From a bacterium (GTDB taxonomy: Bacteria; JAAXHH01), in NCBI GenBank assembly GCA_963693015.1, contig OY843748.1, positions 3,651,059-3,715,058 of the forward strand: a stretch of 64,000 bases of DNA. The letters are read 5' to 3'. Below the pieces are notes generated by a model. It searched no databases. It was not told the DNA's origin and worked only from the letters and a program-made list of their open reading frames with translations. Shown here one piece after another: positions 6,001 through 58,148 of the stretch. Position 1 is the stretch's first letter. Each line of letters begins with the position of its first letter. The position numbers and the translations under genes are program-made.

Positions 6001-6010
6001 GTTTCCTGTC

Positions 6011-32707: not shown

Positions 32708-32731
32708 GATGCCTCCTTGTTTATCCGAAGT

Positions 32732-33862: not shown

Positions 33863-34021
33863 TCGGGCTCCTGTCTGGTTTCGAATCGATCGCGGTTACG
33901 TTTCACTATACGCGGTTGCGATATCCTGCGCGGCTGCGATATCCTGCTCCCGTTGCGATACCCTGCGCGGTTGCGCGTCCGCGGCGACGAGCCCGCTGCT
34001 TCCGGCTTCCCGCGTCCCTGC

Positions 34022-36142: not shown

Positions 36143-36411
36143 GCGTGAAGGGAGTACTCCGGCGCTTGACCTGCGTACCTGAGCGGCGGACGAGAGAGAG
36201 CCGCCGATCGCGTATACTCGTCCCGCGTATACGCATCCCGGGCAAATGAACGTGTAAGACGACGGTGTCGGCAGGCGGCCGACGAGTAGAGATGGTACAG
36301 GTTCCCCCCATGGTTTGCAACCGTTAAATGCAATTTGACAGCCGCTTCCCGACCGGTTAACATACCTCGCCGCACGGACGGTTTCGTACGCTCCCCAATG
36401 TCCCCGATCCG

Positions 36412-37650
36412 ATGGAGAAGGCCTTCCTCATGAACTACAACTTCGATCAGCGTATCAATCGCAACGGAACCAATTCGTACAAGTGGGATTACGTGAAACG
36501 GGACGGGGCCGTCGTTCCGTGGGACGAGACCGACGCCAGGCGCCACGAGAAACCCGTGCTTCCGCTCTGGGTGGCGGACATGGACTTTCCGTGCCCGCGG
36601 CCGGTGGTCGACGCGGTGACCGAAATCGCCCGCATGGGCGTTTACGGATACGCCTTCCCGCCGCCCTCCTATTACGATTCCGTGGTGCGGTGGATGAAGC
36701 GGCGCCACGGCTGGACCGTCGATCCCGACACCATCTGCTTCACCCCCGGCATCGTACCCGCCCTGCACATGCTGGTTTCGGCCTATACGAAGCCGGGCGA
36801 CAGGGTGCTGGTCCAGCCCCCGGTGTACTACCCCTTCTTCAACGCCATCGAGAACCTGCAGACGCGCCCGGCGCTGAATCCGCTGCGCTATGAGAACGGC
36901 CGGTACTACATGGATTTCGACGACCTGGAAGCCCAATGCGCCGATCCCGAGGTGAAACTGGCCATCCTGTGCAGCCCGCACAACCCCGTCGGCCGGGTCT
37001 GGTCAGCCGATGAACTGCGCCGTTTCGGCCGGATCTGCATGGACAACGACGTGCTGGTCGTCTCCGATGAAATCCACTGCGACCTGATCCTCGGGGACCA
37101 CACCTTTACGGCCTACGCCACGCTGGGGCCGGAATACGAGGAACGGTCGATCATCTGCACCTCCCCCAGCAAGACCTTCAACCTCGCCGCGCTGCAGGCG
37201 TCGAACATGATGATCCCGGACGCCGATTTGCGGGAGACCTTTCAGCATACCGTCCGCAGCGCCGGCATCTTCACGCTGAACCCCTTCGGCATCGCCGCCG
37301 TCGAAGCCGCCTACGATCACGGCGAGGAATGGCTGGAGCAGTTGCTGGCCTACCTGGAGGGGAATTTCCGGTTTCTCGAGTCCTTCTTCCGCGAGCGCCT
37401 GCCCCGGATAAAGGTCATCGAAACCGAGGGCACCTATCTCGTCTGGGTGGATTTCACGAGCCTGGGCCTGGACAAGGACGCCCTCCAGCGCCTGATGATG
37501 GAGGAGGCGCGCGTCTTCCTCGACGAGGGGTACATCTTCGGCGCGGAGGGCGAGGGCTTCGAGCGGATCAACATCGCCTGCCCCCGGTCGGTCCTCGCCG
37601 AGGCGCTGGAGCGGATCGAGAGGGCGGTGAATGGGCTGAATTCTACATAA
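36412..37650 (+). CDS. MalY/PatB-type PLP-dependent C-S lyase (cystathionine beta-lyase family)
   Basis: NRNGTNSYKWD start motif, SPSKTFNLAALQ PLP-lysine region, and the C-terminal CPRSVLEEALERI typical of PatB/MalY. Confidence 0.8.
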   Translation: MEKAFLMNYNFDQRINRNGTNSYKWDYVKRDGAVVPWDETDARRHEKPVLPLWVADMDFPCPRPVVDAVTEIARMGVYGYAFPPPSYYDSVVRWMKRRHGWTVDPDTICFTPGIVPALHMLVSAYTKPGDRVLVQPPVYYPFFNAIENLQTRPALNPLRYENGRYYMDFDDLEAQCADPEVKLAILCSPHNPVGRVWSADELRRFGRICMDNDVLVVSDEIHCDLILGDHTFTAYATLGPEYEERSIICTSPSKTFNLAALQASNMMIPDADLRETFQHTVRSAGIFTLNPFGIAAVEAAYDHGEEWLEQLLAYLEGNFRFLESFFRERLPRIKVIETEGTYLVWVDFTSLGLDKDALQRLMMEEARVFLDEGYIFGAEGEGFERINIACPRSVLAEALERIERAVNGLNST

Positions 37651-37835
37651 ATGTCCTCTGATGGCCGCCTGAACACCAAGTTGAAGTTCACGTGAGATAA
37701 TACATACCTGATAAACGACGCATTGACATCAAGTAAATCGATACCCAACCGACATGGTAGCAATCCGGCCTACTCCAACCTCTACCGTTTCTATTACTTA
37801 CACCACTTCCATCTGAACCACAGCAGGTAGTCGAA

Positions 37836-40800
37836 ATGCCGAATCACCCATTTAAGTTCAGCAACATACGCCAATGGCGCGGGTCACAGGATCAAGCGTT
37901 CGAGGAACTGTGTTATCAACTACGTGATCCAACGCCTGATAACGCCGAATTGGTCAAGACAGGGAATCCGGACGGTGGTCTGGAGTGGTATGTCACTCTG
38001 AGTAATGGAGTACAGTGGGGATGGCAGGCGAAGTTCATATTCAAAATTGACATGCTTCTTCAACACATGAAGAAATCGCTTGAGACTGTTGTTCAAAAGC
38101 GACCGAAGTGTCGTAGACTGACTTTCTGTATTCCCTTTGATCTCCCAGACGCTCCAGGAGTTAACGAGCGCAAATCAGCCAGGCAGAAATACAAGGATGC
38201 GAAGGAGCGGTGGCGTGAACGAATCCCAGGCGCTGATCGAGTCCGGATTGAACTGTGGTCGGAGGGTGATCTTTTACAGCGACTTGTCCGTAATCCGGCA
38301 CATCGAGGTATTTCATGGTTCTTCTGGGATGAAGAGGTGTTTTCCCCCGAGTGGTGTAAGCAACGCCATTTGAAGGCTGTCAATTCAGCTGGACCGCGCT
38401 ATAGTCCTGAATTGCACATTGATCTACCAGTATCATTTGCGTTTGAGGGTCTTGCACAAACCGAAGACTTTTGGGAAAGATACCGCGCTCGTCGAAATGC
38501 CGTGCTAACTGCCACAGATGATATCAACGTTTCGGGTTACACGGGTATTGGCGTCACGGGAGAGTTAAGGACACTTGTTCAATGTCTTAAAGAGTGGAGA
38601 TTCAAGGTCCCGGAAAGGGTGGGGCTACCGACACGGCTGGACCGGAATTTGTTGGTGGATCTGACGATCACCTGTCTCAAATCCGCCAATGACGCATTTC
38701 CGCAAGATCGCCCTCGTCCAAAACGAAGCGCGGCAACAAAGAAACAAATCCACAACAACGAACGCCGTAATCGACTGAAGCGTTATCTCCACGATTTGCT
38801 CGCTGCCCTGCAAGACTTTGACGATCTGTTACTGAGTAACGCGGCGAAGGCAGCAGACGCCGGATTGATACTTCTTTCGGGGGAGGCTGGACAGGGAAAG
38901 ACACATCTTTATTGTGACGTCAGCAGACGTGCGATCGAAAATGATCAACCAGCCATTCTGATCTTCGGCGGACGCATGTCCGGAAGGCACGTTTGGTCGG
39001 AAGTCGCCGAGCAGCTTGGTCTTGAGCAAGTCGGCTCGGAGTACTTACTAGGTGCGATGCAGGCGGCAGCCGAAGCCTCGAATTCACCGTTTTTGTTGTT
39101 AATCGATGCATTGAACGAGGCCGCTGATCCACACGCTTGGCGAGAGGAACTTCCCGCGCTACTTTCCGAAGTTGATCAGAATCCATGGATTTCGGTTGGT
39201 ATTTCAGTAAGGTCGTCCTACCGTCGGATTGTGCTCCCAGATTCGGGACTTACCGACGTTGCTGAAATCGAACACACTGGATTCAGGGAGCGCGAGATAG
39301 AGGCATCAGAGGTGTTTTTCAGCGCCTTCGAACTTGAGCTGCCGAGAACCCCGAGACTCGAACCTGAGTTTACGAATCCACTGTTTCTAAAGCTCTACTG
39401 TGAAAGTCTGAAAGGTCTGGGTCTAAGCGCTCCACAGGTCGGCGGGGCGCACATGAGTGAGGTTTTCGATTGGTATCTGGAGTGTAAGGAAAGCCAAATT
39501 GTGTCCCGGTTAAAACTCGATCCGGCATCCAGACCTGTAAAGGCTGCGATCAACGCATTTAGCGAAGCGCTTGCGAAAGATAACCGCGACTATCTCGCAC
39601 GCGACCGGTGCGAACAGATAATCAATGGAATCGCTCCCCAACTGTACGAATGGCCAAATACGTTATTCGGGCAATTGCTAAGCGAGGACGTACTAACCAA
39701 AGATGTAACCTGGAAAGGTGAGGAAGCGGTTCGATTTACGTATCAGCGTTTTTCCGACTATAGGGTAGTTTCTACACTCCTAAAGCCATATAACCGTGAT
39801 CAGATTCGTTTAAGGCAAGCATTAAAACCTAGAAATCGCTTAAGAAATCGGGTTTTGAAGGTGCCGCCAGGATGGATCGAGGCGTTGTCCGTACAACTAC
39901 CCGAGCGGTTTAATATCGAACTGTTGGATGCTGCCCGCTGGCACCTCAGATCGTACACTCGTTACCAATGGGATGAAGCGTTCGTACAGAGCATCTCTGT
40001 GCGTCGCCCTTCTGCCGTAACAGAAAGAACTCGTGAAGTGCTCAGTCAAGTACACCGACGCTCTGGACTCAATGAACTCGTGCTCGAAACGGTTCTGACG
40101 GTAGCGCCACAGCCGGAACACCTTCTGAATGCGAAAGCGTTACACAGATGGCTTAAGAGACTGCCAATGCCAACGCGTGACGTGGTTTGGAGTATACCTA
40201 CTTACTTCGAATTTAACCGTGGCGGGGCGCTTGACCGCCTGATTCGTTGGTCGGCCCGGGGACCATACCCGGATTGTCCGGACGAGGCGGTTGAATTGGC
40301 CGCGATTCCTTTGATCTGGACCTTCACGTCGCCAAACCGACGAATGCGGGACTACGTTACCAAATGCCTTTCGTCGCTTCTTTCTGAACGGTTGTCAGTA
40401 CTCCCAGCGCTAATACGGAAATTCGATGGCTGTAACGATCCCTATGTCGTCGAAAGACTTGCCGTGGTCTCTCATGGTGCCGTTCTGAGCGGAGGCATCT
40501 GTAATCCCCAAGCGGCCGTTTCTATAGCTGTAGGACTGAAGAAAGTCGCGTTTGCTGAAGACCAGATCCCCAACATTATCACCAGAGATGCAGTACGAGG
40601 TGTTTACGAATGGTGCATACAACACGGTCTGATTGACGACGCCCAGTATACCTCCGTACAGCCGCCCTATGGATCCGCGCCTCCCAAGACTCCACGTACC
40701 AAGGAACAGCTTGAACGTCAGTACGATCAACAGAGGTATGTAGGTGTGACAGCGAGGTGGCCGTACTCACGGGTTTTCAACTCAGTCTTTTCAGATGACT

Positions 40801-42125
40801 TCAGTTGTTATGTAATCGATTCCAAACTCCGGAATTTCAGTCATGTGTCACTGTCATCTGTAAGGCGAAATCATGGAATAGAAGAGTGGTATCCAGTGAT
40901 GCAGGCCAAGTGCTGGGTATTTGAACGCGTGCTTTCTCTCGGATGGAAGCCTGAGTTGTTCAGCGATTTCGATCGCGATTACGTTGGACATCAGGCAGGA
41001 CGTAGCGAGCACAAAATAGAGCGTTTTGGCAAGAAGTACCAGTGGATGGCTCTCCAGGAGTTGATCGCGCGGGTTGCGGACAACTTTCAAATGACAGAAA
41101 ATATCGACTATCAGGGACCGTGGCAGTTCTTCAGCCGAGACGTCGATCCCACGCTACCCCCTCCCTCTCTTGAACGTATTGAGGATGACAGTTTCAGGTT
41201 GCATTCAACCTTTTCCCCGACCAAAGCGGACCTGTGGTCTCCGCCCGGACCGAGTTATCGTCATAACGACCCGGTGGCAGGAGAAGATTGGGGGACGAAC
41301 ACTGATGATGTACCCGGATTTGAAACACTGATTAGAAATAAGGACGAAGACGGAATCCATTGGGTGGTCTTGCACGCGCACTACAACTGGGATGAAGAAA
41401 TCCCTGAGGGCAAGCACTGGTGGAGCCAGCGTCACCGTAGTTTCTGGTCTCACATTTACAGTTGGCTCGTCCATCCTGCTGATCAGCCAAAGCTTACCCG
41501 GAATCTAAATAGACATTCGTTAAAGGGACGATGGATGCCCGTAGGGCTTGAGCACGCTGACGCAGCATATCTCGGTGAATTGCCATGGGCCAAAGCGGCA
41601 AACTCGCATTCTACAACATCAGATAGGATAAGATGGCCGCATCACCCGATTCAACTCAAACATGACGTCCACCCAACCTGGATCGAGTACCTTTGGGAAG
41701 GTAACGTTCTTGACTGTTCAATAAATGATGGCGTTCACGCTTGGCTACCTACGCCTATCCTATGCACCCAAGCCAAACTCAGATGGCGACCTGGTACTCG
41801 TGAGTGGGTAACGCCTAACGGTACTACAGTGGTCCAGCACTGCGAACGCGAGCGTCACATGGTGTTGTTAGTACGTGAGTCCTGGTTGAAGAGGACAATT
41901 CGACAGACTGGTCATTCTATCGTTTTTGGCTGGCTCGGCGAAAAAAAACTGCTTGAGGCTGGATTTTCTACCGGATTGGTAGGTGATTGGACAGAGATAA
42001 ACGGAATTGCTACGCTGGTAGAAAACCAATGGGATTTTGGGAAACCACGACTGGAAAGACATATAGTCAATCGTCAGGTGGATTCATACGATACCATACA
42101 ACCGGCAGATCATACTTCTGCTTGA
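37836..42125 (+). CDS. STAND-class P-loop NTPase (NACHT-like) with N-terminal PD-(D/E)xK-like domain; candidate antiviral STAND (Avs/bNACHT-like) protein
   Basis: Walker A GEAGQGKTHL (about aa 340) and NACHT-type Walker B LLLIDALNEA (hhhhDxhxE). N-terminal GNPDGGLEWYV...QAKF is consistent with a PD-x(n)-E-x(n)-QxK nuclease core. A roughly 900-aa C-terminal helical region follows. The gene sits in a low-GC insertion. Confidence 0.65.
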   Translation: MPNHPFKFSNIRQWRGSQDQAFEELCYQLRDPTPDNAELVKTGNPDGGLEWYVTLSNGVQWGWQAKFIFKIDMLLQHMKKSLETVVQKRPKCRRLTFCIPFDLPDAPGVNERKSARQKYKDAKERWRERIPGADRVRIELWSEGDLLQRLVRNPAHRGISWFFWDEEVFSPEWCKQRHLKAVNSAGPRYSPELHIDLPVSFAFEGLAQTEDFWERYRARRNAVLTATDDINVSGYTGIGVTGELRTLVQCLKEWRFKVPERVGLPTRLDRNLLVDLTITCLKSANDAFPQDRPRPKRSAATKKQIHNNERRNRLKRYLHDLLAALQDFDDLLLSNAAKAADAGLILLSGEAGQGKTHLYCDVSRRAIENDQPAILIFGGRMSGRHVWSEVAEQLGLEQVGSEYLLGAMQAAAEASNSPFLLLIDALNEAADPHAWREELPALLSEVDQNPWISVGISVRSSYRRIVLPDSGLTDVAEIEHTGFREREIEASEVFFSAFELELPRTPRLEPEFTNPLFLKLYCESLKGLGLSAPQVGGAHMSEVFDWYLECKESQIVSRLKLDPASRPVKAAINAFSEALAKDNRDYLARDRCEQIINGIAPQLYEWPNTLFGQLLSEDVLTKDVTWKGEEAVRFTYQRFSDYRVVSTLLKPYNRDQIRLRQALKPRNRLRNRVLKVPPGWIEALSVQLPERFNIELLDAARWHLRSYTRYQWDEAFVQSISVRRPSAVTERTREVLSQVHRRSGLNELVLETVLTVAPQPEHLLNAKALHRWLKRLPMPTRDVVWSIPTYFEFNRGGALDRLIRWSARGPYPDCPDEAVELAAIPLIWTFTSPNRRMRDYVTKCLSSLLSERLSVLPALIRKFDGCNDPYVVERLAVVSHGAVLSGGICNPQAAVSIAVGLKKVAFAEDQIPNIITRDAVRGVYEWCIQHGLIDDAQYTSVQPPYGSAPPKTPRTKEQLERQYDQQRYVGVTARWPYSRVFNSVFSDDFSCYVIDSKLRNFSHVSLSSVRRNHGIEEWYPVMQAKCWVFERVLSLGWKPELFSDFDRDYVGHQAGRSEHKIERFGKKYQWMALQELIARVADNFQMTENIDYQGPWQFFSRDVDPTLPPPSLERIEDDSFRLHSTFSPTKADLWSPPGPSYRHNDPVAGEDWGTNTDDVPGFETLIRNKDEDGIHWVVLHAHYNWDEEIPEGKHWWSQRHRSFWSHIYSWLVHPADQPKLTRNLNRHSLKGRWMPVGLEHADAAYLGELPWAKAANSHSTTSDRIRWPHHPIQLKHDVHPTWIEYLWEGNVLDCSINDGVHAWLPTPILCTQAKLRWRPGTREWVTPNGTTVVQHCERERHMVLLVRESWLKRTIRQTGHSIVFGWLGEKKLLEAGFSTGLVGDWTEINGIATLVENQWDFGKPRLERHIVNRQVDSYDTIQPADHTSA

Positions 42126-42291
42126 TTGTAAGGGAAAGCAACCGAGAGACTTAGTTCGCTATAAATGATGAAATTGACTTCGAGAATACAATCTCCTCTT
42201 CGACTGAAGAACATAAGACAAAGAAGAAATGCTCCAGCGCAATCTCAGACTTTTTAAAGTACTATCGGGTCTAAAGTAAAGGGGCAGTCCG

Positions 42292-43470
42292 ATGCCATTC
42301 ATAGAACGCCTTCGCTTAGGCGGCCTGCTGTCTTTTCCTCCGGACATGGAGTTCTTCGACTTACGCCCTCTGAACGTCCTGATTGGTCCGAACGCGTCGG
42401 GGAAATCCAACTTCATAGAGGCGCTGGAACTGCTACGGGCCTTGCCTGTGGACTTCGCCGCCGCGATCCGGGACGGCGGCGGTGCGGAAGAGTGGTTGTG
42501 GAAAGGCGATCATCCACCCGCCCCCGCGGCAATAGAAGTGGAAACCGGTCCCGGCATGGAAACCGGTCGACATTTAGAGTATCGTCTGTCGTTCACCGCA
42601 GCGGGCCAGCGGGTCCGGATCCTCGACGAGGCCATCGAAGAGGCGCCTGCACAACAGGCATCCGAGCCGTACTTCCACTACACGTTTCAACAAGGACGCC
42701 CGGTAATCAATGTTCGAACGCCCGGTGGACAAGTATCCGAGAGACAGGTAAAGTGGGATAATCCTTCGCTGGATCAATCCGTTCTTGCACAAAGAAAAGA
42801 CGCTTATCGTTATCCGGAACTTTACTGGCTTGGTTTGCGATTCCAATCGATCCAGACGTTCCGGGAATGGACGTTTGGTCGTTACGGCTCGCTCCGACGG
42901 CCGCAACGAGCCGATCTCCCGGAGAACCGGCTACTTCCCGATTCTGGTAATCTTCCGTTGGTCCTCAACCACATTGAGCATACGACCGGCGTGGTCTTCA
43001 ATGAACATCTGAAACGGTTCTTCCCCCGATTCGAGCGGATGTCCACGTCGATCTCGGGGGGCACCGTGCATTTCTACCTGCACGAATCCGGCTTCGGCAC
43101 GCCGATCCCCGCAACGCGGCTGTCCGACGGCACCATCAGATTCATCGCGCTGCTGGCCACTCTGCTTACCCCGACGCCTCCATCGCTGGTATGCATCGAG
43201 GAACCCGAACTCGGACTGCATCCCGACGCAGTGGCGCTGCTCGCCGACCTGCTGGTTGAAGCCTCCGACCGGATGCAACTCGTGATCACTACGCATTCCG
43301 ATGCCCTGGTGTCGGCGCTGACCAATCAACCAGAGGCCATCGTCGCCTGTGAACGCCCCGGGGCCGCCACCGAGTTGCGCCGCCTCGACGCGGAACGCCT
43401 GGCCGGTTGGCTTGAGAAGTATCAACTAGGCGACCTGTGGCGCATGGGCGAGATCGGGGCAAACCCTTGA
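42292..43470 (+). CDS. AAA_21/ABC-type ATPase (OLD/PtuA/AriA-like defence ATPase family)
   Basis: Walker A LIGPNASGKSNFIEAL, Walker B LVCIEEPELGLHP, and a split ABC ATPase with a long insertion. Confidence 0.75.
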   Translation: MPFIERLRLGGLLSFPPDMEFFDLRPLNVLIGPNASGKSNFIEALELLRALPVDFAAAIRDGGGAEEWLWKGDHPPAPAAIEVETGPGMETGRHLEYRLSFTAAGQRVRILDEAIEEAPAQQASEPYFHYTFQQGRPVINVRTPGGQVSERQVKWDNPSLDQSVLAQRKDAYRYPELYWLGLRFQSIQTFREWTFGRYGSLRRPQRADLPENRLLPDSGNLPLVLNHIEHTTGVVFNEHLKRFFPRFERMSTSISGGTVHFYLHESGFGTPIPATRLSDGTIRFIALLATLLTPTPPSLVCIEEPELGLHPDAVALLADLLVEASDRMQLVITTHSDALVSALTNQPEAIVACERPGAATELRRLDAERLAGWLEKYQLGDLWRMGEIGANP

Positions 43471-44105
43471 GGAGGAGTGTCAGCATCTATCTTGAAGGCG
43501 GAGGCGATACTTCTGGTACGAGGGCGGCGCTCCGCCATGGAATGGATACGTTCCTTCAGCCGCTGAAGCAAGCGGCCAGGGACAAGGCGCTACGTTGGAA
43601 ACTGGTCGCCTGCGGTACGCGCAGGGAAGCTTACAAAGGGTTTCGAAACGCTATACACGATCTTGAAAGAGATGAGGTCGTCGTCTTACTGGTGGACGCG
43701 GAAGGACCGGTAAACCGGTCGGCGTCCGAACACCTGCGAAACCGCGATGGTTGGGATTTCAGCCTTGCTTCAGACTACGGGGTTCAACCTGACGACGTGG
43801 TACATCTTATGGTGGAGACGATGGAAACCTGGATCGTGGCGGATCCGCACACGTTAGGCGTTTACTACGGCCAGGGATTCAGGACAAATGCACTACCCAA
43901 AGCGCAGAACCTTGAAACCGTTACCAGGATTGATGTCGCGCACAGTTTGAAGGAGGCGACAAGGCAGACCCGGAAAGGATCATATCACAAGATCAAACAC
44001 GCGAGCGACCTTTTGCGGCGGATCGACGTGGAAAAAGTAAAGCGACGCTGTCGTCACTGCCGGTTGCTGTTCGAGAGACTCGGGCCACTGGTCGACGCGG
44101 CCTGA
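43437..44105 (+). CDS. DUF4276-family protein (partner of AAA_21 ATPases)
   Basis: SIYLEGGGD near the N-terminus matches the family (i-hVEG..D signature). The more likely start is the TTG at 43467, overlapping the ATPase stop (TTGA), which suggests translational coupling. Confidence 0.6.
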   Translation: MAHGRDRGKPLRRSVSIYLEGGGDTSGTRAALRHGMDTFLQPLKQAARDKALRWKLVACGTRREAYKGFRNAIHDLERDEVVVLLVDAEGPVNRSASEHLRNRDGWDFSLASDYGVQPDDVVHLMVETMETWIVADPHTLGVYYGQGFRTNALPKAQNLETVTRIDVAHSLKEATRQTRKGSYHKIKHASDLLRRIDVEKVKRRCRHCRLLFERLGPLVDAA

Positions 44106-44372
44106 AATCCTGGATCAGGGGGCTTTGGTACCGTCAGCAGGTCGGCGCGGGCCAAGTCCAAAGTGAACGTGTTCCGAAGTCGTTTTCTCCTGCATCCTGT
44201 CGCCCGCCTCATGTTTGCTTCCACTTCGGATCGTGCAGCCCCCGTTGTCACACGGTGTCACACAACCGGGAAGGTCGGATGGATGGGCGGAAACCCCCGT
44301 TTCCGTCACTTTGATGACGATCAGGCACTGGCTCATGATCCTTGCCCCTTCGCAATCTGCTGAAAACGTTAC

Positions 44373-44399
44373 TTGACCATCCGCGATTTCATCTATAAT
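44373..44399 (+). promoter_or_regulatory. sigma70-like promoter candidate (TTGACC - 15 nt - TATAAT) upstream of the halogenase/RiPP operon
   Basis: Perfect -10 hexamer 37 nt upstream of ATG 44436. The RBS AAAGGA is 8 nt before the start. The spacer is short (15 nt). Confidence 0.4.
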
Positions 44400-44435
44400 T
44401 AGAAAAACTGACCGATACCTGCGAAAGGACGTGGG

Positions 44436-45716
44436 ATGATACGGCCGGGCGCTGAATCGTTGCGGAAGATCGCGGTCATCGGACAGGGAACCGCGGGCTC
44501 CCTGGCGGCCGCCAGTGTAACGCGTCTTCTCTCCGACGACGACCACGAACTGCATCACATCTACGACTCGCGCATTCCGGTCATCGGCGTGGGCGAAGGC
44601 AGTTGGCCGAGTCTGGTACAGGAACTGCACCAGCTGACGAATCTGCCCCACGCAACCGTCCAGCGGCGCTTGAACGGAACCCGCAAGTACGGCGTCGCAT
44701 TCGAGGGATGGGGGTGCCGCAGCCGGGATTTCACCCACTACTTCACGCCGCAACAGGTATCCTATGCCTACCATTTGTCCGCCGACGTGCTGGCGGAGCT
44801 GTTGCGCGAAAGCACGCGCGCGCGCCACGTCGACGCGAACGTGCGCGACATCAAAACCCTGGAGGACGGCGCGCAAGTCGAGTTCGACGGCCGGGCGCCG
44901 GAACGCTACGACCTGGTCTTCGATGCGCGCGGATTCCCGAAAGAACTCCATCCCGACCGGCACATCGACATTTCCTTCATTCCCACCAATACGGCCGTCA
45001 TCCGGCGCTGCCCGGCCGTCATCGCGGAAGAGCGGGACGGGCCGGTCGTGAAGCATACCTACACCCGTGCCGTTGCACGTCCCCACGGCTGGATATTCGT
45101 CATTCCGCTGACGGTGCACACCTCCTACGGGTACATCTTCAACCGCGATATATCCAGCCTCGAAGAAGTCGAATCGGACTTCGACGCCTTCCTTGAAGCC
45201 GATGGCGTGCCGGAATTCGAGCAGCGCGCCGTCATTCCGTTTCCCAACTTCATCCATCGCCGGATCTACGATGGCGCCGTGGCCCGCGTTGGCAACGCGG
45301 CGGCCTTCATGGAGCCCCTGGAGGCCACGGCGATCGTATCTGCCCAGCTGCAAATCGGGATGGTGTTGCAGACGCGTCTGAACCGGCCGGCAGAGCATCT
45401 CGCGCCCGACGCGCCGGTGGTCAACCGGTTTCTCGTCGACAACATGCTCTGCTACGGCCTGTTCGTCGGCTGGCACTATTGCCGTGGCTCCAGGTACGAC
45501 ACCACGTTCTGGCGTCACGCCCGAAACGACGTGTGGCCCCGTCACCGCGACGCGGCAGCGCCCGAGGCGGTGGATTGCGCCGCACTCGGCAAATTCGATG
45601 GGATGTTCGAGCTACTGAATCAACCGGTCATCGACAAATCGGATTGGGACCGGATGTGCGCGGTACCGCTTACCAGCTACGCCCAGGTGTCCCAGGGGCT
45701 GGGCTGCCAAAAGTGA
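44436..45716 (+). CDS. flavin-dependent halogenase (tryptophan-halogenase family, PF04820-like)
   Basis: N-terminal KIAVIGQGTAGSLAA (GxGxxG) and the GWIFVIPL motif (the WxWxIP signature of FADH2-dependent halogenases). Size is about 426 aa. Confidence 0.8.
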   Translation: MIRPGAESLRKIAVIGQGTAGSLAAASVTRLLSDDDHELHHIYDSRIPVIGVGEGSWPSLVQELHQLTNLPHATVQRRLNGTRKYGVAFEGWGCRSRDFTHYFTPQQVSYAYHLSADVLAELLRESTRARHVDANVRDIKTLEDGAQVEFDGRAPERYDLVFDARGFPKELHPDRHIDISFIPTNTAVIRRCPAVIAEERDGPVVKHTYTRAVARPHGWIFVIPLTVHTSYGYIFNRDISSLEEVESDFDAFLEADGVPEFEQRAVIPFPNFIHRRIYDGAVARVGNAAAFMEPLEATAIVSAQLQIGMVLQTRLNRPAEHLAPDAPVVNRFLVDNMLCYGLFVGWHYCRGSRYDTTFWRHARNDVWPRHRDAAAPEAVDCAALGKFDGMFELLNQPVIDKSDWDRMCAVPLTSYAQVSQGLGCQK

Positions 45717-45809
45717 CATTACTTGATTCGGGATGCGTATAACTTCATATTATATATCTAAATAAAGTAGTTTTGACTTGCTCGACAACCGGGAGGCATT
45801 GCTACAGTC

Positions 45810-46514
45810 GTGTTCAACAATCCATTAAACTCATTCCATGATACCGTTGCCGAAGCGAAGGAAGAGCGGGAACAGCTCGACCGGTTGCTGACGATTTCCA
45901 CGCCGCGGGAGCGTCTGCTCGTCGTCGCGATCGCGGTTGTGCTGTGCGTCACGCTGGCATGGCTTTTCTATGGCAGCGTAGCGCATAGTATTGCGGTGGA
46001 CGGCGTACTGTCCGCATCCGGGCTAGTCGAAGCCCCGTCCGGTCAAGTCGAAGTCCCGGCCGAGCGGGGCGAAAACGGGTCCGTTCAAGTCGAAGCCCCT
46101 GCCGGGCAAGGCGAAAAATCGACCGTTCAAGTCGAAGCCCCTGCCGGGCAAGGCGAAAAATCGACCGTTCAAGTCGAAGCCCCGGCCGAAGGCAGCCGGT
46201 CCGTGCAGGCCCTCGCCTGGATCGACGGCGGTATCGCGCCGCAGATCGAAGCCGGGATGCCGGTGGTGATCGAGCCGGATCCGGCAGATGGAGAACCCGG
46301 CGCGCTGGGCGGAACGGTCCGGGCGATCTCCGCCGTGCCCTTTGCCGGGGCGCTGGCGGCCTTCGAATCCGGGGCGCCGGCGTCCGTGCACCGTATCGAT
46401 ATCGCCCTCGAAGAGAGTCTTGATCCGGATTCCCTTGCGGGCAGGAAATGCCGGATCGTCATCGAGCTGGGCAGGCAATCTCCGATCACGCTGTTTCGAA
46501 TGAGGCGGCCATAG
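45810..46514 (+). CDS. HlyD-like membrane-fusion/secretion protein, unusually short (NHLM bacteriocin-system type)
   Basis: Cytoplasmic N-terminus, a single TM (LLVVAIAVVLCVTLAWLFYG) and a C-terminal beta-rich region. The coiled-coil region is replaced by VQVEAPAGQGEKST repeats. Start is a GTG. Confidence 0.55.
   Translation: MFNNPLNSFHDTVAEAKEEREQLDRLLTISTPRERLLVVAIAVVLCVTLAWLFYGSVAHSIAVDGVLSASGLVEAPSGQVEVPAERGENGSVQVEAPAGQGEKSTVQVEAPAGQGEKSTVQVEAPAEGSRSVQALAWIDGGIAPQIEAGMPVVIEPDPADGEPGALGGTVRAISAVPFAGALAAFESGAPASVHRIDIALEESLDPDSLAGRKCRIVIELGRQSPITLFRMRRP
46039..46206. repeat. 42-bp tandem repeat x4 (two perfect copies) encoding (S)VQVEAPAGQGEKST
   Basis: Seen directly. Perfect copies are 46081-46122 and 46123-46164. 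Confidence 0.85.
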
Positions 46515-46588
46515 GATGTCGAAGCGCATATCCACGGCCAGGCGTCGAAGCGCCAGGTCCTCCAGAACTCGAATGAGGCAACCATAGG

Positions 46589-48802
46589 ATGTCGACGAGC
46601 ACCTCCAGGGGAGCCAGAGGCAAGGCCTCCTCGGATAAATCAGACCAGCGGGTAACCACGCCGATTCTGTTGCAGATGCACGCTTCAGAATGCGGCGCCG
46701 CCTGTCTGGGCATCGTACTGGCCCACTTCGGGAGATGGGTACCGCTTACCGAACTGCGCGAGAAATGCGAGGTGAGCCGGGACGGCAGCAGCGCCGCAAG
46801 CATCCTGCGTGCCTCCAGGCACTATGGGCTCGAATGCAACGGGCTCAGCGTACGCGTCGATCAACTGCACATGCTGCCGTTGCCCCTGATCCTGTTCTGG
46901 CAGTTCAGCCATTTCGTCGTCCTCGAGGGATTCGATGGCCGTAACTTCTACCTCAACGACCCTGCCACGGGACGCCGCCGCCTTTCCGCCGAAGAGTTCG
47001 AGTCGGGCTACAGCGGCATAGCGCTTCGCTTCAAGCGCGGCAAAGACTTCGAGTCCGGTGGCGAGCAGCCCGACTTGTTCCGGCAACTGGGCGCCTTGCT
47101 CGCCGGATCGTGGAGATCGCTTGCCGGGGTGTTTGCCTGCGGACTCATGTTGACGTTGCTGACGCTGATCATTCCCGCGTCGATCGGTGCCTTCGTCGAC
47201 GACGTCATGGAAACGCAAGGGGCCTGGGGCGGTTTGGTGACCGCCCTGCTTGGCGGCGGCGCCCTGGTATACGTCCTTTCCCTGCTCAAGAACCGGTTCC
47301 TCAAGCGGCTCGCGGTCAGGGTGTCGGTGACCGGCTACAGCCGCGGGATGTCGCGGCTGCTGCGGTTGCCGGTGGAGTTTTTCGAACACAGGCTGACGGG
47401 CGATCTGACCGACCGGGTCTCGTCCACCGACCGGATCGCGAAGAACCTGGCGGACCAGTTCCTGGTGCTCATCATCGACGTGGCCATGAGCCTGGTGTTC
47501 CTCGCGGCGATGTTCGCCTTCGACGTCCTGCTCACGCTGATCGTGCTTTTGCTGGCGCTGCTGCACGGTCTGCTGGCCCACTTCCTCAACGCCCTTCGGG
47601 CCGTTCGAAGTCAGGCGATGCGGCGCGAGCAGGGACTGCTGATCGGCCTCGGCATGCAGATGCTGAGTCACGCCGACAATCTGCGCATGACGGGCGCGGA
47701 CGATCGGTTTTTCTCGCGCTGGAGCGGTCAACAGGCCCGCGAACTGCGCGCGCGCCAGCTCTATGCCGAACTGGGCGCCGTCAATACCTCGCTTCCGGGC
47801 CTGGTCGACGCCCTGCGCAGCGCGGCGATACTCGCCATCGGCGGCAGCATGGTCCTGAACGGAGCCATGACCCTGGGGACGCTGGTCGCCTTCTACATCC
47901 TGGCGGAGATGTTCCTGACGCCCGTCGAGCGCTTCCTGGCCTTCGCCGAAAACCGCCAGGCGCTCGAAACCGATCTGCAACGACTCGAGGACGTCTCCAG
48001 GACCGATGAAGATCCCGTTTTCAGCCGCAGAAGCCAGGAGTCGGAATCGGTCCCCACGTTCAACGGCCGGCTCCAACTCGCGGGCCAGCTCGAACTGCGG
48101 AACGTCACCTTCGGTTTCAACAGGAGCCGGCCGCCCCTGATAAAGGACTTCAACCTCGTGATCAAGCCGGGACAGCGGGTCGCCGTGGTCGGTCCCAGCG
48201 GTTCCGGCAAGTCGACGCTGGCGCGGCTGGTTTCGGGGGTCTATCAGCCCTGGTCGGGCGAAATCCTGTTCGACGAGGGCCATCTGCGGGATCAGATCCC
48301 GGAGGAAGTGCTGCGGCAGTCCATATCCATGGTGGATCAGGAGGTCGTGCTCTTCTCCGCGTCCCTGCGCGACAATATCACGCTGTGGAACCCGGCCGTT
48401 CCGGATGAAGTCCTCTTCGCCGCGACGCGGGACGCCCGGATCCACGACGAAATCCTGGTCAGACCGCAGGGATACGCGTCCCTCGTCGAAGAAGGCGGGG
48501 CGAATTTCAGCGGCGGCCAGCGGCAACGGCTGGAAATCGCCCGCGCGCTGGTGGGGAACCCGACGGTGCTCATTCTGGACGAGGCCACCAGCGCCCTCGA
48601 TGCCGCGACGGAGGAATACGTCGACGATGCCCTGCGGCGTCGCGGCGTCACCTGCCTGATCGTGGCGCACCGGCTGAGCACCGTGCGGGACTGCGATGAG
48701 ATCATCGTGCTCGACAAAGGCGCCACCGTGCAACGCGGCACGCACGACGAGTTGATCGCGGATCGGAACGGCGCCTACTACAACCTGGTCAGATCGAACT
48801 GA
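46589..48802 (+). CDS. peptidase-C39 domain ABC exporter (double-glycine leader-cleaving bacteriocin/RiPP transporter)
   Basis: N-terminal QMHASECGAACLGIVL (C39 catalytic Cys) and HFVVLEGFDG (His). Six TM helices, Walker A GPSGSGKST and signature LSGGQRQRLEIARAL. Confidence 0.85.
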   Translation: MSTSTSRGARGKASSDKSDQRVTTPILLQMHASECGAACLGIVLAHFGRWVPLTELREKCEVSRDGSSAASILRASRHYGLECNGLSVRVDQLHMLPLPLILFWQFSHFVVLEGFDGRNFYLNDPATGRRRLSAEEFESGYSGIALRFKRGKDFESGGEQPDLFRQLGALLAGSWRSLAGVFACGLMLTLLTLIIPASIGAFVDDVMETQGAWGGLVTALLGGGALVYVLSLLKNRFLKRLAVRVSVTGYSRGMSRLLRLPVEFFEHRLTGDLTDRVSSTDRIAKNLADQFLVLIIDVAMSLVFLAAMFAFDVLLTLIVLLLALLHGLLAHFLNALRAVRSQAMRREQGLLIGLGMQMLSHADNLRMTGADDRFFSRWSGQQARELRARQLYAELGAVNTSLPGLVDALRSAAILAIGGSMVLNGAMTLGTLVAFYILAEMFLTPVERFLAFAENRQALETDLQRLEDVSRTDEDPVFSRRSQESESVPTFNGRLQLAGQLELRNVTFGFNRSRPPLIKDFNLVIKPGQRVAVVGPSGSGKSTLARLVSGVYQPWSGEILFDEGHLRDQIPEEVLRQSISMVDQEVVLFSASLRDNITLWNPAVPDEVLFAATRDARIHDEILVRPQGYASLVEEGGANFSGGQRQRLEIARALVGNPTVLILDEATSALDAATEEYVDDALRRRGVTCLIVAHRLSTVRDCDEIIVLDKGATVQRGTHDELIADRNGAYYNLVRSN

Positions 48803-48830
48803 CGCGGCAAACGGAGCCGGAATACAGACC

Positions 48831-51797
48831 ATGCCGGAATACACGTCCATAGCCGAACTCGCCGCCCGCTTCGGCGAGTCCGTGCCCTGCGCGGGCAACC
48901 TGCCGGTCGAACTCGTCGACCCGGAGAGCGTCTGGTTCATCGATCAGGGCGCCGTCAATCTGTTCCTGGTCGAATTCAGGGACGGGGTGGAACAGGCCGC
49001 GCCCCAGCATCTGCTGCGCCGGGAATCGGGCTGGTTGCTGCCGGGTGTCGCGCCGGACCGGGGGGACAGCGACGAAGACACCACGCTCAGCATCATCGCC
49101 AAGGGACTGCCGGGCACCCTGCTGAAACGTCTGCCGGCCGCCTTGCTGTCCCGGGTACGTCCGTCGGAACTGGCGGAACAGACCGATACCTGGCTGACCG
49201 CCATTACCGAGACGCTGGCGCGTTACGCGATTCCCCTTCCCCGGCCGGATGCGCTGGCCGAACCCGGCCTGACGCAGACCCTGGCCCCGTGTACGCTATC
49301 CGTACGGCGCGGCGTGGCATGGGTTACCGAACCGCCGTCCGGCGCAAGCCTGTACATGGGTATCGTAGACTACGCGGACAGTGCGGGAGCGAGCGGCCCC
49401 CATGGTCCGGGCGGTCCGCACGGCCCGCACGACGCGGTCGTTCCGCTGACGCGGACGAGCTGGCTCACCTTGACCGACGAGGCGACGCTGACAGGCCAAT
49501 CCACTGAAACGCTGGCGGAGCAAGGCGTGCTGCTGCCCGCCCTCGCCGCTTTTCACGCGGTTGCCTTCACCCTGGAACGCCTGAACCGCCGACTGGTCGT
49601 GGTCGACGCCGTCAATCTCGAACGCGCGCAGATCGCCAGCCGCCGCACGGCCGAGAAAACCGCCCGGCAGCGGCTCTACAATATCTATGACCGTCCGTCC
49701 GGCCGGGATGCCGGCATTGAGGACACGGCACTGACGGATGCCCTGAAGCTCGTCGGCCGCCATGAAGGCATCGATTTCAAGATTCCGGCGCCGTCGGGCC
49801 AGGCCGATGCTCGGGTCGGCCTCGTCGACGTTCTTGAAGCGTCGGGCGTGCGGGCCCGGCGCGTGCGATTCAAAGACGAGGGCAGCTGGTGGCGCGGCGA
49901 CAGCGGAGCGATGCTGGCGTTCCGCGCCGGGGACGGCCAGCCCGTGGCGCTGCTGCCGGGCATGTTCGGACGGTACCGGGAAGTCGACCCGGTCACCAAG
50001 CGGAGCGTCCGGGTTACGGCGGCCCGCCTGGACGGCGCGGGCAAACTGGCGGATGAAGCCTGGACGTTCTATCGGCCCTTGCCGCCGGGGGACGTGAAAC
50101 CGGCGGATCTGCTGAGAATCGCCCTGCACGGCGCGGCTCCGGATCACGTACGGCTGGTCATGGCCGGGCTTCCGGGCGGCCTGATCAAACTGCTGCCGGC
50201 GATCGCCCTCGGGTTCGTTGCCCATCAGGTATCGGCGGGCGGCAGCGCGGGAACGCTCTATGCCGTCGCCGTGGCGGTGGCGGCCTTCGGCCTGCTCGGC
50301 GCATTGCTGCACCTGCTTCAGAGCACGGCGATGATGCGGCTCGAAGGGCGCTCCGGCTCCCGGGTCGAAGCGGCCTTCTGGGACCGTCTCATGCGCCTTC
50401 CCTCAAGCACGCTGCACCGACATCCGGCCGGCGATCTGGCGATGACGGGCATGACGTTCCAGCATCTTCGCGACGGCCTGCAGGGCGTCGTCGCCAACGG
50501 CTTTCTGTCGATCATCTTCCTCCTTCCGGTTTTTGGCGTCATCTTCTTCTACGATGCCGCCCTCGGTGTCATCACCCTCGCCTTCAGCCTGGTTTCGCTG
50601 CTGGTCACCGTCGTACTGGGGTTGCGCCAGATTTCGCCTTACGGGTGGATGATTACCGCGTCGCGTCGCGTGGCCGGCCGGCTGTTCCAGATCGTGGGCG
50701 GCATCTCCAAGCTGCGCATGGATAACGCGGAAGGGTCGGCTTACGCCATCTGGGCGAAGCACTATCGCGAGCAGAAGCGCGCGGAGATCGAACTCGGGGC
50801 GCTGGAAGGCCATTCGCGGGCCCTTGGCGCCGCCCTTCCCTTTCTTGCCGGCGGGGTGCTGCTTTACGCGGTGGCATCGGGGGGAGACCGGAACGTTCCG
50901 GTCGGCGATTTTCTCGTCGTCTACATCGTCTTCATCGTCTTCCAGTCCGCCATCGCCCGGCTCGGCGAGTCCTTCGGCGCCATTGCCGCGATGCTGCCGT
51001 CCTTCCAACAGATGCGCCCGATGCTCTCGGCGGTTCCTGAAACCGGGACCGAGGGCGAGCCGGTCGAATATCTGGGCGGCGACATATTGTTCGACCGCGT
51101 TTCCTTCCGCTACGATCCCGATGGTCCGTTGATACTCGACGACGTCACAATTCGCGCCCATCCCGGCGAATTCGTCGCCATTGCCGGTGAATCCGGCGCC
51201 GGCAAGAGCACCCTGTTCCGGCTCGCCCTCGGTATCGACTGGCCGACCGCCGGCGCGGTGTATTACGACGGACGCGACCTGCGGCACCTGAATCTGAAGC
51301 AGGTGCGCCGCAAGATCGGCGCGGTGCCGCAATCCATCGGCCTTCATCCTCAGGATCTGTGGGACAATCTGGTCAGCCACCACGATGCCGTGACGACCGA
51401 GGAAGTCTGGGCGGCGGCCCGGACCGCCGAAGTCGAAGCCCAGATCAAGGACATGCCCATGGGCATGATGACCATGGTGGGCGCCAGCGGGTCCGTCCTG
51501 TCGGGCGGCGAGAGCCAGCGCATCGCAATCGCCCGCTCGGTGATCGGCAACCCGCGAATCATGCTGTTCGACGAGGCGACGAACTGGCTGGACAACGAAA
51601 ACCAGTCCAGGGTCATGGGGAACATCGCCGGCCTGACTTCCACCCGCCTCGTCATCGCCCACCGCCTGTCCACGCTGGAACAGGCCGACCGCATCTACGT
51701 GCTGCAGGCCGGGCGAGTCGTGCAAAGCGGTTCCTTTACGGAACTTATGGAGGCCGACGGGGTATTCAAAGAGCTGATCAGAAGGCAGATCGCCTGA
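48831..51797 (+). CDS. NHLM-type bacteriocin ABC exporter, ATP-binding/permease protein with long N-terminal domain
   Basis: About 480-aa N-terminal non-transporter region, then 6 TM, Walker A GESGAGKST and signature LSGGESQRIAIARS. Its pairing with a C39-ABC and an HlyD matches the TIGR03794/03796/03797 trio architecture. Confidence 0.7.
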   Translation: MPEYTSIAELAARFGESVPCAGNLPVELVDPESVWFIDQGAVNLFLVEFRDGVEQAAPQHLLRRESGWLLPGVAPDRGDSDEDTTLSIIAKGLPGTLLKRLPAALLSRVRPSELAEQTDTWLTAITETLARYAIPLPRPDALAEPGLTQTLAPCTLSVRRGVAWVTEPPSGASLYMGIVDYADSAGASGPHGPGGPHGPHDAVVPLTRTSWLTLTDEATLTGQSTETLAEQGVLLPALAAFHAVAFTLERLNRRLVVVDAVNLERAQIASRRTAEKTARQRLYNIYDRPSGRDAGIEDTALTDALKLVGRHEGIDFKIPAPSGQADARVGLVDVLEASGVRARRVRFKDEGSWWRGDSGAMLAFRAGDGQPVALLPGMFGRYREVDPVTKRSVRVTAARLDGAGKLADEAWTFYRPLPPGDVKPADLLRIALHGAAPDHVRLVMAGLPGGLIKLLPAIALGFVAHQVSAGGSAGTLYAVAVAVAAFGLLGALLHLLQSTAMMRLEGRSGSRVEAAFWDRLMRLPSSTLHRHPAGDLAMTGMTFQHLRDGLQGVVANGFLSIIFLLPVFGVIFFYDAALGVITLAFSLVSLLVTVVLGLRQISPYGWMITASRRVAGRLFQIVGGISKLRMDNAEGSAYAIWAKHYREQKRAEIELGALEGHSRALGAALPFLAGGVLLYAVASGGDRNVPVGDFLVVYIVFIVFQSAIARLGESFGAIAAMLPSFQQMRPMLSAVPETGTEGEPVEYLGGDILFDRVSFRYDPDGPLILDDVTIRAHPGEFVAIAGESGAGKSTLFRLALGIDWPTAGAVYYDGRDLRHLNLKQVRRKIGAVPQSIGLHPQDLWDNLVSHHDAVTTEEVWAAARTAEVEAQIKDMPMGMMTMVGASGSVLSGGESQRIAIARSVIGNPRIMLFDEATNWLDNENQSRVMGNIAGLTSTRLVIAHRLSTLEQADRIYVLQAGRVVQSGSFTELMEADGVFKELIRRQIA

Positions 51798-51851
51798 TCC
51801 GATTACGAGGATGACGGCCTGGCGGCAAACGCGCGCCTTCGGCCCGGACCC

Positions 51852-53168
51852 GTGAAAACGGAGTGGAAAACGATGAAGAAGCCCTTTGACGTGACGGGTT
51901 ACCTGCAGTCGCGTGCCGACGACGACCACGACTTCCGGGAACGTCTTCTCGCCAGGCCCAGGGAAACCATCGAAGAGGAATTCGGCGTGACGATGGCCAG
52001 AGACCATGAGATTCACGTCCACGAAGAATCCTATGCTTCGACGCACGTTGTCCTGCCGCCGCGTAGCAAATACACCAAGGCGGAACAGGAAGAAGCGAGA
52101 ACCGGCGCGGCCTCGCTCGAGTTCCTTCGCAAGACGATGTCCGATCCCGCGCCGCCCCTGCGTCCGCCCGCGGGTGAAGGGGAAAGCGTTTCCGGATTCT
52201 CCGGTACCCCCGAGGCGCTTGCAGACGCGGCCAGAGAGCGCATCCGCCGCGGCCTCGTCTTCCTGGAATCCGCCATAGACGAAAGGGGCGCCTGGCACTG
52301 TATCCGATTCAACGTGGGCGACCCGAATATCCCGCGGCATTTCGAAAGACCCGCCTTCATATCGGCTTACTGCGTCCTTGCCCTGGAGTATTGCCGGGAG
52401 GCGCGGGCCCGGTCCATCTGCGCCGCGGCCAGGGCGTATCTTGCCGACACCATCGAATACCCCGGATTCTGGCGCTATTACCGCCATCTGCCCCAGGATC
52501 TCGACAGCACCACGCTTTCTTCGCTTGTGATTGGAACGCACCCCTGGATCCTGCTGGAGCGAAACGTTCCGCGGATACTGGCGAATCGCGACGGGGAAGG
52601 CCGTTTCATGACCTGGGTGCTGACGGAAGACGAACCCGACGTCGTGTCGCGCTTTCGCATCGAAGCCGACCCCGTCGTCAATGCGAACGTCATCGCCTAT
52701 CTCGGCGACCGCCCGGAAACCAGGGAAGCGCAGCGATGGCTGGAAGCGCTGGTAGCCGAAGGCGATCTCGCGGGGTCGTCCAAATGGTATCCCGACGAGG
52801 TGGCCATCTACTATGCGATCGCCCGCGCCATGGGTCGCGCCGAGCCCGCGCTGAGTGGCCTGCGCCCGGTACTCGCGGACCGTGTCCTCGGCTTGCAGGA
52901 CGACAGTGGAGATTTCGGCAACGTCCTTCAGACCGCCCAGGCCGTGTCGGTGCTCCACGAAGTCGGACGCCTTGACCGCATCGACGCGAAACGCCAGGCG
53001 GAAAGACTCTTATGTTCCCAGCGCGAGGACGGCAGCTGGCCGGAACTCCTCGCCTTTGGAGACCAATCGTTGAAGTGGGGCGCAGTAGGACAGATCGGAC
53101 ACGGATCCGAAGCCGTGACCTCTGCGTTCTGTATCGAAGCGCTCGAGCGCCTCGTCACGTACCTGTGA
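51852..53168 (+). CDS. NHLP-type leader domain fused to prenyltransferase/terpene-cyclase-like alpha/alpha-toroid domain
   Basis: Residues 20-70 (DHDFRERLLARPRETIEEEFGVTMARDHEIHVHEESYASTHVVLPP) align position-by-position with the precursor at 59393-59644 and with the NHLP consensus. The C-terminal 350 aa carry QxxDGSW-like repeats (QREDGSWPE, LQDDSGDFGN, NRDGEGRF). Confidence 0.6.
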   Translation: MKTEWKTMKKPFDVTGYLQSRADDDHDFRERLLARPRETIEEEFGVTMARDHEIHVHEESYASTHVVLPPRSKYTKAEQEEARTGAASLEFLRKTMSDPAPPLRPPAGEGESVSGFSGTPEALADAARERIRRGLVFLESAIDERGAWHCIRFNVGDPNIPRHFERPAFISAYCVLALEYCREARARSICAAARAYLADTIEYPGFWRYYRHLPQDLDSTTLSSLVIGTHPWILLERNVPRILANRDGEGRFMTWVLTEDEPDVVSRFRIEADPVVNANVIAYLGDRPETREAQRWLEALVAEGDLAGSSKWYPDEVAIYYAIARAMGRAEPALSGLRPVLADRVLGLQDDSGDFGNVLQTAQAVSVLHEVGRLDRIDAKRQAERLLCSQREDGSWPELLAFGDQSLKWGAVGQIGHGSEAVTSAFCIEALERLVTYL

Positions 53169-53253
53169 ACGTGAATCCTGCCGGTCCGGGAATCCCGCGA
53201 CGAGATAACTTCCCGCGTAGGTGTTCGATTATGCTTACTAAGGAGGTGTTACC

Positions 53254-58139: not shown

Positions 58140-58148
58140 GGAGGCGGA

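Follow-up and report, generated by a model that had tools for sequence, protein, structure and literature searches.

HEC-01, or 'Hma-embedded candidate 01', was described as an ABC ATPase paired with a TOPRIM protein that shares the metal site of BpOLD (Payne et al., bioRxiv 10.1101/2024.01.29.577857). Among uncharacterised candidate defence systems, it is one of the commoner in environmental metagenomes, and a cold-seep representative gave E. coli B protection from at least one of the phages T4, T5 and T7 (PMC12881386). The DUF4276 domain has been placed in the Toprim superfamily and equated with Mad4 of the MADS system (PMC12065111); MADS defence depends on mad3 as well as on mad4, and Burman et al. 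count MADS3-4 and AbiL among the systems that combine an ABC ATPase with a TOPRIM protein. Among related systems, PARIS, Gabija and PrrC are known to be triggered by Ocr and Stp, and OLD by RecBCD inhibitors. Here, we analysed a stretch of 64,000 nucleotides (nt) of bacterial DNA (assembly GCA_963693015.1, contig OY843748.1, positions 3,651,059 to 3,715,058), hereafter the window, whose own numbering is used throughout, and within it a pair of plus-strand genes at 42292-44105 that encode an ABC-type ATPase and a DUF4276 protein. The two genes probably form a translationally coupled module against phages that is of the PADLOC HEC-01 type and amounts to an OLD-like nuclease split in two.

The first gene, HEC-01A (42292..43470), starts with ATG and encodes an ABC-type ATPase of 392 residues related to SMC, Rad50 and OLD proteins. 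Pfam assigns it to AAA_21 (1.3e-38, 134 bits for a cut-off of 27) and AAA_15 (7.6e-17), and its N-terminus matches SMC_N/RecF-type models. The PADLOC HEC-01A model PDLC04177 is matched at 8.1e-151 and 500 bits, with residues 3-391 aligned on profile positions 4-391 of 393. Weaker PADLOC matches are to AriA (PDLC02980, 4.9e-37), AbiLi (3e-23), mad3 (1e-17), Old (1e-14) and GajA (3e-12). In NCBIfam, the MAD3 equivalog NF047739 reaches 86.1 bits for a cut-off of 420 and PtuA 28.6 bits for a cut-off of 500, and the score of the retron Eco8 effector model for the pair is far under its cut-off. The ABC motif set is complete and comprises a Walker A motif (GPNASGKS, 42385-42408), a Q-loop (Q167), an LSGG-like signature (LSDGT, 43120-43134), a Walker B motif with its catalytic glutamate (LVCIEE, 43186-43203) and an H-loop (H335, 43294-43296). 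Across 42 homologues K38 of Walker A, Q167, S278 and G280 of the signature, E304 of Walker B and H335 are invariant, and E303 is kept in at least 90% of the sequences. Approximately 260 residues separate Walker A from Walker B, in agreement with an earlier note on this DNA that described an AAA_21 ATPase with a long insertion between the two motifs. The protein ends with a conserved C-terminal tail (W373...LGDLWRMGEIGANP) in which W373, L374, G380, W383, G386 and G389 are invariant in the same homologues. With these motifs intact, HEC-01A is predicted to be catalytically competent.

The AlphaFold2 model of HEC-01A was obtained from a shallow alignment (69-90% identity) and has a pLDDT (predicted local distance difference test) score of 82. 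In this model, the segment inserted between Walker A and the signature motif is rich in beta structure. Foldseek matches the model best to SMC heads, to PtuA from Septu and retron complexes, to Rad50 and to TsOLD (E values from 3e-11 to 2e-9); the 50 top matches do not include AriA.

The second gene, HEC-01B (43467..44105), encodes 212 residues when read from its TTG codon. DUF4276 is its sole Pfam match (7.7e-22, 78.9 bits for a cut-off of 30.2, profile positions 2-191 of 192), so that the family assignment made in the earlier note passes the Pfam threshold, and the SIYLEGGGD motif on which that note had remarked corresponds to residues 6-14. PADLOC matches are to HEC-01B models only, with PDLC04201 at 3.6e-66 (residues 14-215 of a 222-residue form on profile positions 3-196 of 202). 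No AriB or mad4 model of PADLOC and no Toprim_OLD model of Pfam matched the protein, and NCBIfam gave no model for it. The family of this partner comprises 1754 clusters at 50% identity (E <=0.001). In an alignment of 48 HEC-01B sequences with 35-78% identity to the window protein, E10, G11, R23, G50, L74, D77, W122, D126, E150 and Y173 are invariant. Position 79 is acidic in all 48 (43 E, 5 D), E120 is a glutamate in 47 and an aspartate in one, and K175 is kept in 46.

The AlphaFold2 model of HEC-01B (mean pLDDT 96.6) consists of alternating strands and helices, with E10 directly after strand 1 and D77 after strand 3. Foldseek and sequence-profile searches of the PDB with HEC-01B returned nothing significant, and the protein is therefore best regarded as a divergent TOPRIM; its best fold match is an OLD nuclease. 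BpOLD coordinates metal A through E400, D455 and D457; E404, T506 and E508 take part at metal B, and K562 serves as a catalytic residue. The putative metal ligands E10 (43494-43496), D77 (43695-43697) and E79 (43701-43703) of HEC-01B would correspond to the metal-A ligands of BpOLD by their position in the fold. E120, which follows strand 4, and K175 may be the counterparts of BpOLD E508 and K562. The model thus predicts for HEC-01B an OLD-type TOPRIM fold with a complete acidic metal site.

The HEC-01A and HEC-01B open reading frames (ORFs) share four nucleotides. In the context ...AAC CCT TGA GGA GG..., the TTG of HEC-01B (43467-43469) lies over the TGA stop of HEC-01A (43468-43470), which gives a TTGA junction at 43467..43470. 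Upstream of the pair, an AAGGGG element (42278..42283, plus strand) located 8 nt from the HEC-01A ATG is the likely ribosome-binding site (RBS). The ORF that ends at 44105 has two possible starts, TTG 43467 and GTG 43437, the latter being the start in the public 222-residue annotation (P0001). We compared the window with 80 related loci that were gathered with the DUF4276 alignment alone and come from many phyla; junction counts include the window (n=81). In all 80, a same-strand ATPase homologue (41-88% identity) ends a few bases from the DUF4276 start. A 4-nt NTGA overlap with an ATG, GTG or TTG start codon is found at the junction in 52 of the 81 loci, 20 cyanobacterial loci have a 7-nt ATG..TAA overlap and six loci a 1-nt overlap, and at least 78 of the 81 junctions overlap in all. 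In the closest relative (L010), the TTG of the TTGA is the sole start codon upstream of the conserved first strand, and the same holds for the NTGA start of L027, L044 and L085. The N-termini of the homologues line up with the TTG 43467 start. These data bear out the proposal of the earlier note that the DUF4276 start overlaps the ATPase stop, and the TTGA overlap is, from the sequence, a predicted translational-coupling junction.

GTG 43437 was rejected as the HEC-01B start, as it is missing from the closest relative and 52 of the 81 loci have a start at the NTGA position. This codon falls within the conserved C-terminal region of the ATPase gene that encodes LGDLWRMGE, and its recurrence among relatives may reflect the conservation of that tail. 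A perfect AGGAGG sequence stands at 43471-43476, right after the TTGA and inside codons R2-R3 of HEC-01B; no canonical in-frame start is present between it and the conserved first strand. The only fused locus of the 81 is L070 (8819-10645, on an uncultured Planctomycetota contig), which encodes the ATPase and DUF4276 as a single 608-residue ORF with an altered ATPase tail (LGEILAYRRAGRQSVKEVAIYLEGGGD). This ORF is either a genuine OLD-like fusion or the product of an assembly indel.

The identities of the two proteins to their homologues co-vary across loci with a Spearman coefficient of 0.89, and HEC-01A and HEC-01B thus evolve together. The ATPase is the more conserved of the two in 72 of 77 loci, with mean identities of 58% for the ATPase and 50% for the partner. 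Compared with the relatives L009, a Latescibacterota metagenome-assembled genome, and L002/L010 (OY762445.1), the ratio of nonsynonymous to synonymous substitution rates (dN/dS) is 0.12-0.16 for HEC-01A, 0.27-0.28 for HEC-01B and 0.13-0.16 for the neighbouring genes. The dS of the pair (0.45-0.56) is level with that of the flanking aminotransferase and halogenase genes (0.50-0.64), which indicates that the pair was already present in the common ancestor. The pair is thus vertically inherited in this lineage and is under purifying selection with or without adjoining Hma genes. Sensors are commonly expected to evolve faster than effectors. The dN/dS of HEC-01A, the presumed sensor, is about half that of its nuclease partner, the reverse of this expectation.

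The base composition of the pair is foreign to the host. The G+C content at third codon positions (GC3) is 0.66 for HEC-01A and 0.62 for HEC-01B, compared with 0.50 for the 1429-residue gene upstream and 0.80-0.88 for almost all other genes of the window. Near-identical ATPases (70-80% identity) are spread over unrelated phyla, and the data suggest a patchy, strain-variable distribution of the family.

The gene upstream of the pair (37836..42125, plus strand) encodes a STAND NTPase of 1429 residues that belongs to the Avs2 family and is an independent neighbouring defence gene. It matches PADLOC PDLC02164 (E=0, 1133 bits) and PDLC02162 (4e-212, residues 6-1374). The NCBIfam Avs2 model gives 820 bits, under its equivalog cut-off of 1000, and covers only residues 183-1009, so the N-terminal effector and C-terminal sensor regions may be divergent. 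When the other 47 ORFs of the 64 kb were scanned with PADLOC, no Hma, BREX or restriction-modification (RM) model was matched. The scan gave four weak matches to mad3, as many as there are ABC_tran proteins in this DNA, and two weak ones to mad8 (best E 1e-10), with no recognisable MADS gene set among these ORFs. As these matches are few, weak and scattered, the defence island of this window consists of Avs2 and HEC-01, which agrees with the suggestion that the STAND gene and the pair form a small defence island.

The Avs2 gene, with AT-rich flanks, is the only content of a variable slot of 4.6 kb (37639..42277) that extends from the 3' end of the aminotransferase gene to the HEC-01A RBS. Both sides of this slot are collinear between L009 and the window, with 32620-37638 corresponding to L009 97-5125 and 42278-54323 to L009 8809-20623, at 76-84% and mostly 82-84% nucleotide identity. 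L002/L010 is collinear from window position 42277 rightwards at approximately 85%; its locus ends 10 kb upstream, and the left border of the slot was therefore compared with L009 only. The cargo differs in each case. In L002 (1-8810), the slot holds a DUF1156 methylase, a DUF433 gene, a DUF499 gene (Hma-like) and a further AAA_21 ATPase gene. In L009 (5126-8808), it holds a minus-strand ORF of 984 residues (5170-8124) that has an acidic low-complexity region, resembles TPR models weakly (2.6e-5 at best) and matches no family of PADLOC or NCBIfam. From its position, the 984-residue TPR protein is a candidate uncharacterised defence gene.

The right breakpoint of the slot (42277/42278) lies directly upstream of the AAGGGG RBS and is the left end of the sequence common to the relatives; the pair is therefore without a conserved promoter of its own. 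A scan of 41900-44500 for sigma-70 promoters and intrinsic terminators did not exceed what shuffled sequence gives, and the 166-bp gap before the ATPase gene was free of candidates. Only short repeats at chance level were found between 37400 and 44500, with no att-like or target-site duplication flanking the Avs2 slot or the pair, and no integrase or transposase was seen at the slot borders. In this lineage, the pair forms the stable border of a defence hotspot and is passed on vertically, and the adjoining slot has been refilled at least three times.

In the wider family, tblastn detected a BrxC-like gene upstream of the pair in 12 of the 80 loci (L014, L015, L018-L020, L022, L023, L028, L032, L037, L059 and L073), that is, about 15% of the pairs lie within BREX. 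BrxC is located 1-9 kb upstream, and 10 of these 12 loci also encode a BrxB-sized protein of 230 residues. A PADLOC scan restricted to the two nearest ORFs, at most, on each side of the pair identified BrxC in eight loci, BrxA in three, BrxB in three and PglX downstream in seven. In the BREX-carrying loci, the pair is thus embedded between brxC and pglX. In L006, the start of a type I hsdR gene overlaps the DUF4276 stop by 4 nt, and in the closest relative the Hma-like DUF1156/DUF499 genes are directly upstream of the pair. Additional HEC-01-like or PDC-M07 ATPases adjoin it in a few loci. The remaining neighbours are mixed and include the housekeeping genes mutS (downstream in four loci) and hemE; Avs2 is present in none of the other loci. 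The term 'defence island' therefore fits this genome and not the family in general, many loci being located among ordinary metabolic genes. The BREX, Hma-like and type I RM placements show that the pair is not confined to housekeeping contexts and, together with the PADLOC HEC-01 match, they support the anti-phage reading put forward in the earlier note.

The same placements raise the alternative that the pair is not autonomous. It could be an accessory or effector of a methylation-based system, such as Hma, BREX, type I RM or a MADS-like system, that was orphaned here once Avs2 replaced the Hma-like genes. HEC-01 was indeed first found embedded in Hma, the closest relative retains Hma-like genes next to the pair, the 12 BREX loci place it between brxC and pglX, MADS defence depends on both mad3 and mad4, and the homology that begins at the RBS leaves no conserved promoter to the pair. 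We nevertheless consider this alternative unlikely. No Hma, BREX or RM gene is present within the 64-kb window, where HEC-01A is also far under the MAD3 equivalog cut-off (86 bits for 420), and most of the 80 loci are without such neighbours. The pair evolves under purifying selection at the dS of its neighbours both here and in L009, where the 20.6 kb examined include no Hma-like gene; from this selection without a nearby methylation system, we argue that the pair works on its own. In addition, a clone of HEC-01, whose insert may hold more than the two genes, reportedly protects E. coli B, a host said to be without these systems (PMC12881386).

A less probable explanation is that the pair is a selfish addiction cassette of the toxin-antitoxin (TA) type, with the nuclease as toxin and the ATPase as antidote, kept by post-segregational killing. 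The tight gene overlap with its coupled stoichiometry, the very diverse contexts in which the cassette occurs and the Pfam description of AAA_21 as a 'putative AbiEii toxin, type IV TA' would all fit this explanation. However, plasmids and phages, where addiction modules concentrate, gave no matches, no AbiEi-type antitoxin is present, and the ATPase is the larger and more conserved protein with intact catalytic motifs, a better fit to a sensor or motor than to an antidote. The addiction and defence readings are not mutually exclusive, since abortive-infection systems often behave like TA pairs.

RecF is an SMC-like ABC ATPase and RecR a TOPRIM protein. A housekeeping role in DNA repair or recombination, with the two proteins as analogues of RecF and RecR, which would account for the SMC_N/RecF-type matches of HEC-01A, the shared domain logic, the repair or metabolic genes beside several loci (mutS downstream in four) and the vertical inheritance in this lineage, is the least probable of these explanations and very unlikely in view of the foreign GC3, the scattering of ATPases of 70-80% identity over unrelated phyla, the location of the pair within BREX, Hma and RM operons, the best fold match to an OLD nuclease with a complete acidic metal site, and the listing of the family as a defence candidate with one representative positive in a phage assay (PMC12881386).

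We therefore favour the interpretation of the pair as an anti-phage module, for which we propose the following mechanism. HEC-01A would oligomerise, probably by head-to-head ATP sandwiching as in the heads of SMC, Rad50, OLD, PtuA and AriA, and would act as both the infection sensor and the keeper of HEC-01B. HEC-01B, a small metal-dependent TOPRIM nuclease, would be produced in fixed proportion to HEC-01A through the overlapping stop and start codons and would form a complex with it that keeps the nuclease inactive. A cue from the phage, either an anti-restriction protein or another phage product, might then shift the state of the ATPase and release or activate the nuclease. The latter could cut DNA, as do OLD and Gabija, or tRNA, as does AriB of PARIS, and thus stop the infection, perhaps with the loss of the cell. 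From complex formation, sequestration and release to the trigger, the substrate and the abortive outcome, all these steps are inferred.

Several observations weigh against the anti-phage interpretation. In most of the 80 loci, no recognisable defence gene adjoins the pair, and in several the pair lies beside housekeeping genes. A tblastn search of plasmid and phage collections with the DUF4276 protein returned nothing, unlike what is found for PARIS. The proposed logic of complex formation and sequestration is an analogy taken from PARIS and Septu. The phage-assay record of HEC-01 comes from other representatives only, none of them known to belong to this subfamily, and the representative assayed by Payne et al. 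(10.1101/2024.01.29.577857) in E. coli protected against none of the phages in their panel. Together with the protection conferred by the cold-seep representative, this makes the experimental record of HEC-01 contradictory.

With regard to the trigger of the HEC-01 module, an anti-restriction protein may be a reasonable candidate, because of the repeated placement of the pair in restriction, BREX and Hma operons and of the known triggers of related systems. It is possible, if doubtful, that HEC-01 is a general 'guard of restriction' that senses phage anti-restriction proteins like PARIS, with an unrelated DUF4276 TOPRIM effector. In such a case, the recombination boundary at the RBS would let each incoming cargo supply the transcription of HEC-01.

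The locus provides a residue map for mutagenesis, with K38, E304 and H335 in the ATPase and E10, D77, E79, E120, D126 and K175 in the nuclease. It also offers, at one hotspot, a natural three-way comparison that flags the 984-residue TPR protein as a defence candidate, and contributes the fused variant of L070.

Downstream of the pair, a plus-strand gene cluster (44436-59267) is kept in L002 and L009. The next gene encodes a Trp halogenase (44436-45716) and is followed by an unannotated ORF of 234 residues with a 3-fold VQVEAPAGQGEKST repeat (45810-46514), a C39-peptidase ABC exporter (46589-48802), a second ABC exporter (48831-51797), a 438-residue protein with a weak match to NHase_alpha, i.e. 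nitrile-hydratase-alpha-like (51852-53168), a desaturase fusion (53254-55653) and a winged helix-turn-helix (wHTH)-YcaO protein (55650-58139), all on the plus strand. With its C39 exporter, YcaO protein and Trp halogenase, this cluster does resemble those for ribosomally synthesised and post-translationally modified peptides (RiPPs), in line with the earlier note. Elsewhere in the window, a minus-strand gene (18455-19660) encodes a 401-residue protein that combines a collagen triple-helix repeat with a trypsin-like peptidase domain. With a GC3 of 0.66, it is the only other sizeable low-GC3 gene of the window and may be a second foreign gene.

We finally compared the pair with the described systems. 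Among those in which the ATPase has a nuclease or helicase partner of another type, Septu and the retron-associated PtuAB share with the pair the two-gene logic of an ATPase and a nuclease, and the HEC-01A model resembles PtuA (Foldseek E ~1e-10), but PtuB belongs to the HNH nucleases and the partner found here to the TOPRIM proteins. In Gabija, GajB is a UvrD-like helicase, whereas here the partner is a DUF4276 protein and the gene that follows encodes the Trp halogenase. Of the OLD, PARIS and Septu-like logic suggested in the earlier note, the OLD and PARIS part, an ABC ATPase with a TOPRIM protein, was retained, and the Septu-like and Gabija-like labels were dropped because the partner is of the wrong type.

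The OLD family (P2 Old, BpOLD and TsOLD) has in common with HEC-01B the predicted TOPRIM fold with metal ligands of the Glu and DxD type. It differs from the pair in that the ATPase and nuclease are here separate polypeptides, the partner has no Pfam Toprim_OLD match, and 43 of the 48 HEC-01B sequences have D-x-E instead of D-x-D; the UvrD-like helicase partner that defines class 2 OLD systems is also missing here. In PARIS, AriB is of the DUF4435 type and has approximately 300 residues (target length 305), compared with approximately 210 residues for the DUF4276 protein, and the ATPase matches HEC-01A at 8e-151 but AriA at only 4.9e-37. Mad3 and Mad4 of MADS are the same domain pair, an AAA_21-type ATPase and a DUF4276 protein; however, HEC-01A misses the MAD3 equivalog cut-off of 420 with its 86 bits, no mad4 match was obtained, and the window has none of the other mad genes, of which the MADS model requires mad6-8.

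PADLOC already lists the pair as the candidate HEC-01, and DUF4276 is already published as a domain of the TOPRIM superfamily; the locus leaves the current picture of ABC ATPase and TOPRIM immunity unchanged, and its additions are modest. Both proteins match the HEC-01 hidden Markov models from end to end, the order of an ABC ATPase followed on the same strand by a TOPRIM/DUF4276 protein is that of HEC-01, and a relative adjoins Hma-like genes, whereas the pair described here lies outside Hma, beside Avs2. Beyond HEC-01 itself, a split OLD, PARIS or the Mad3-Mad4 pair of MADS provides a better analogy for this module than Septu and Gabija, which fit less well.

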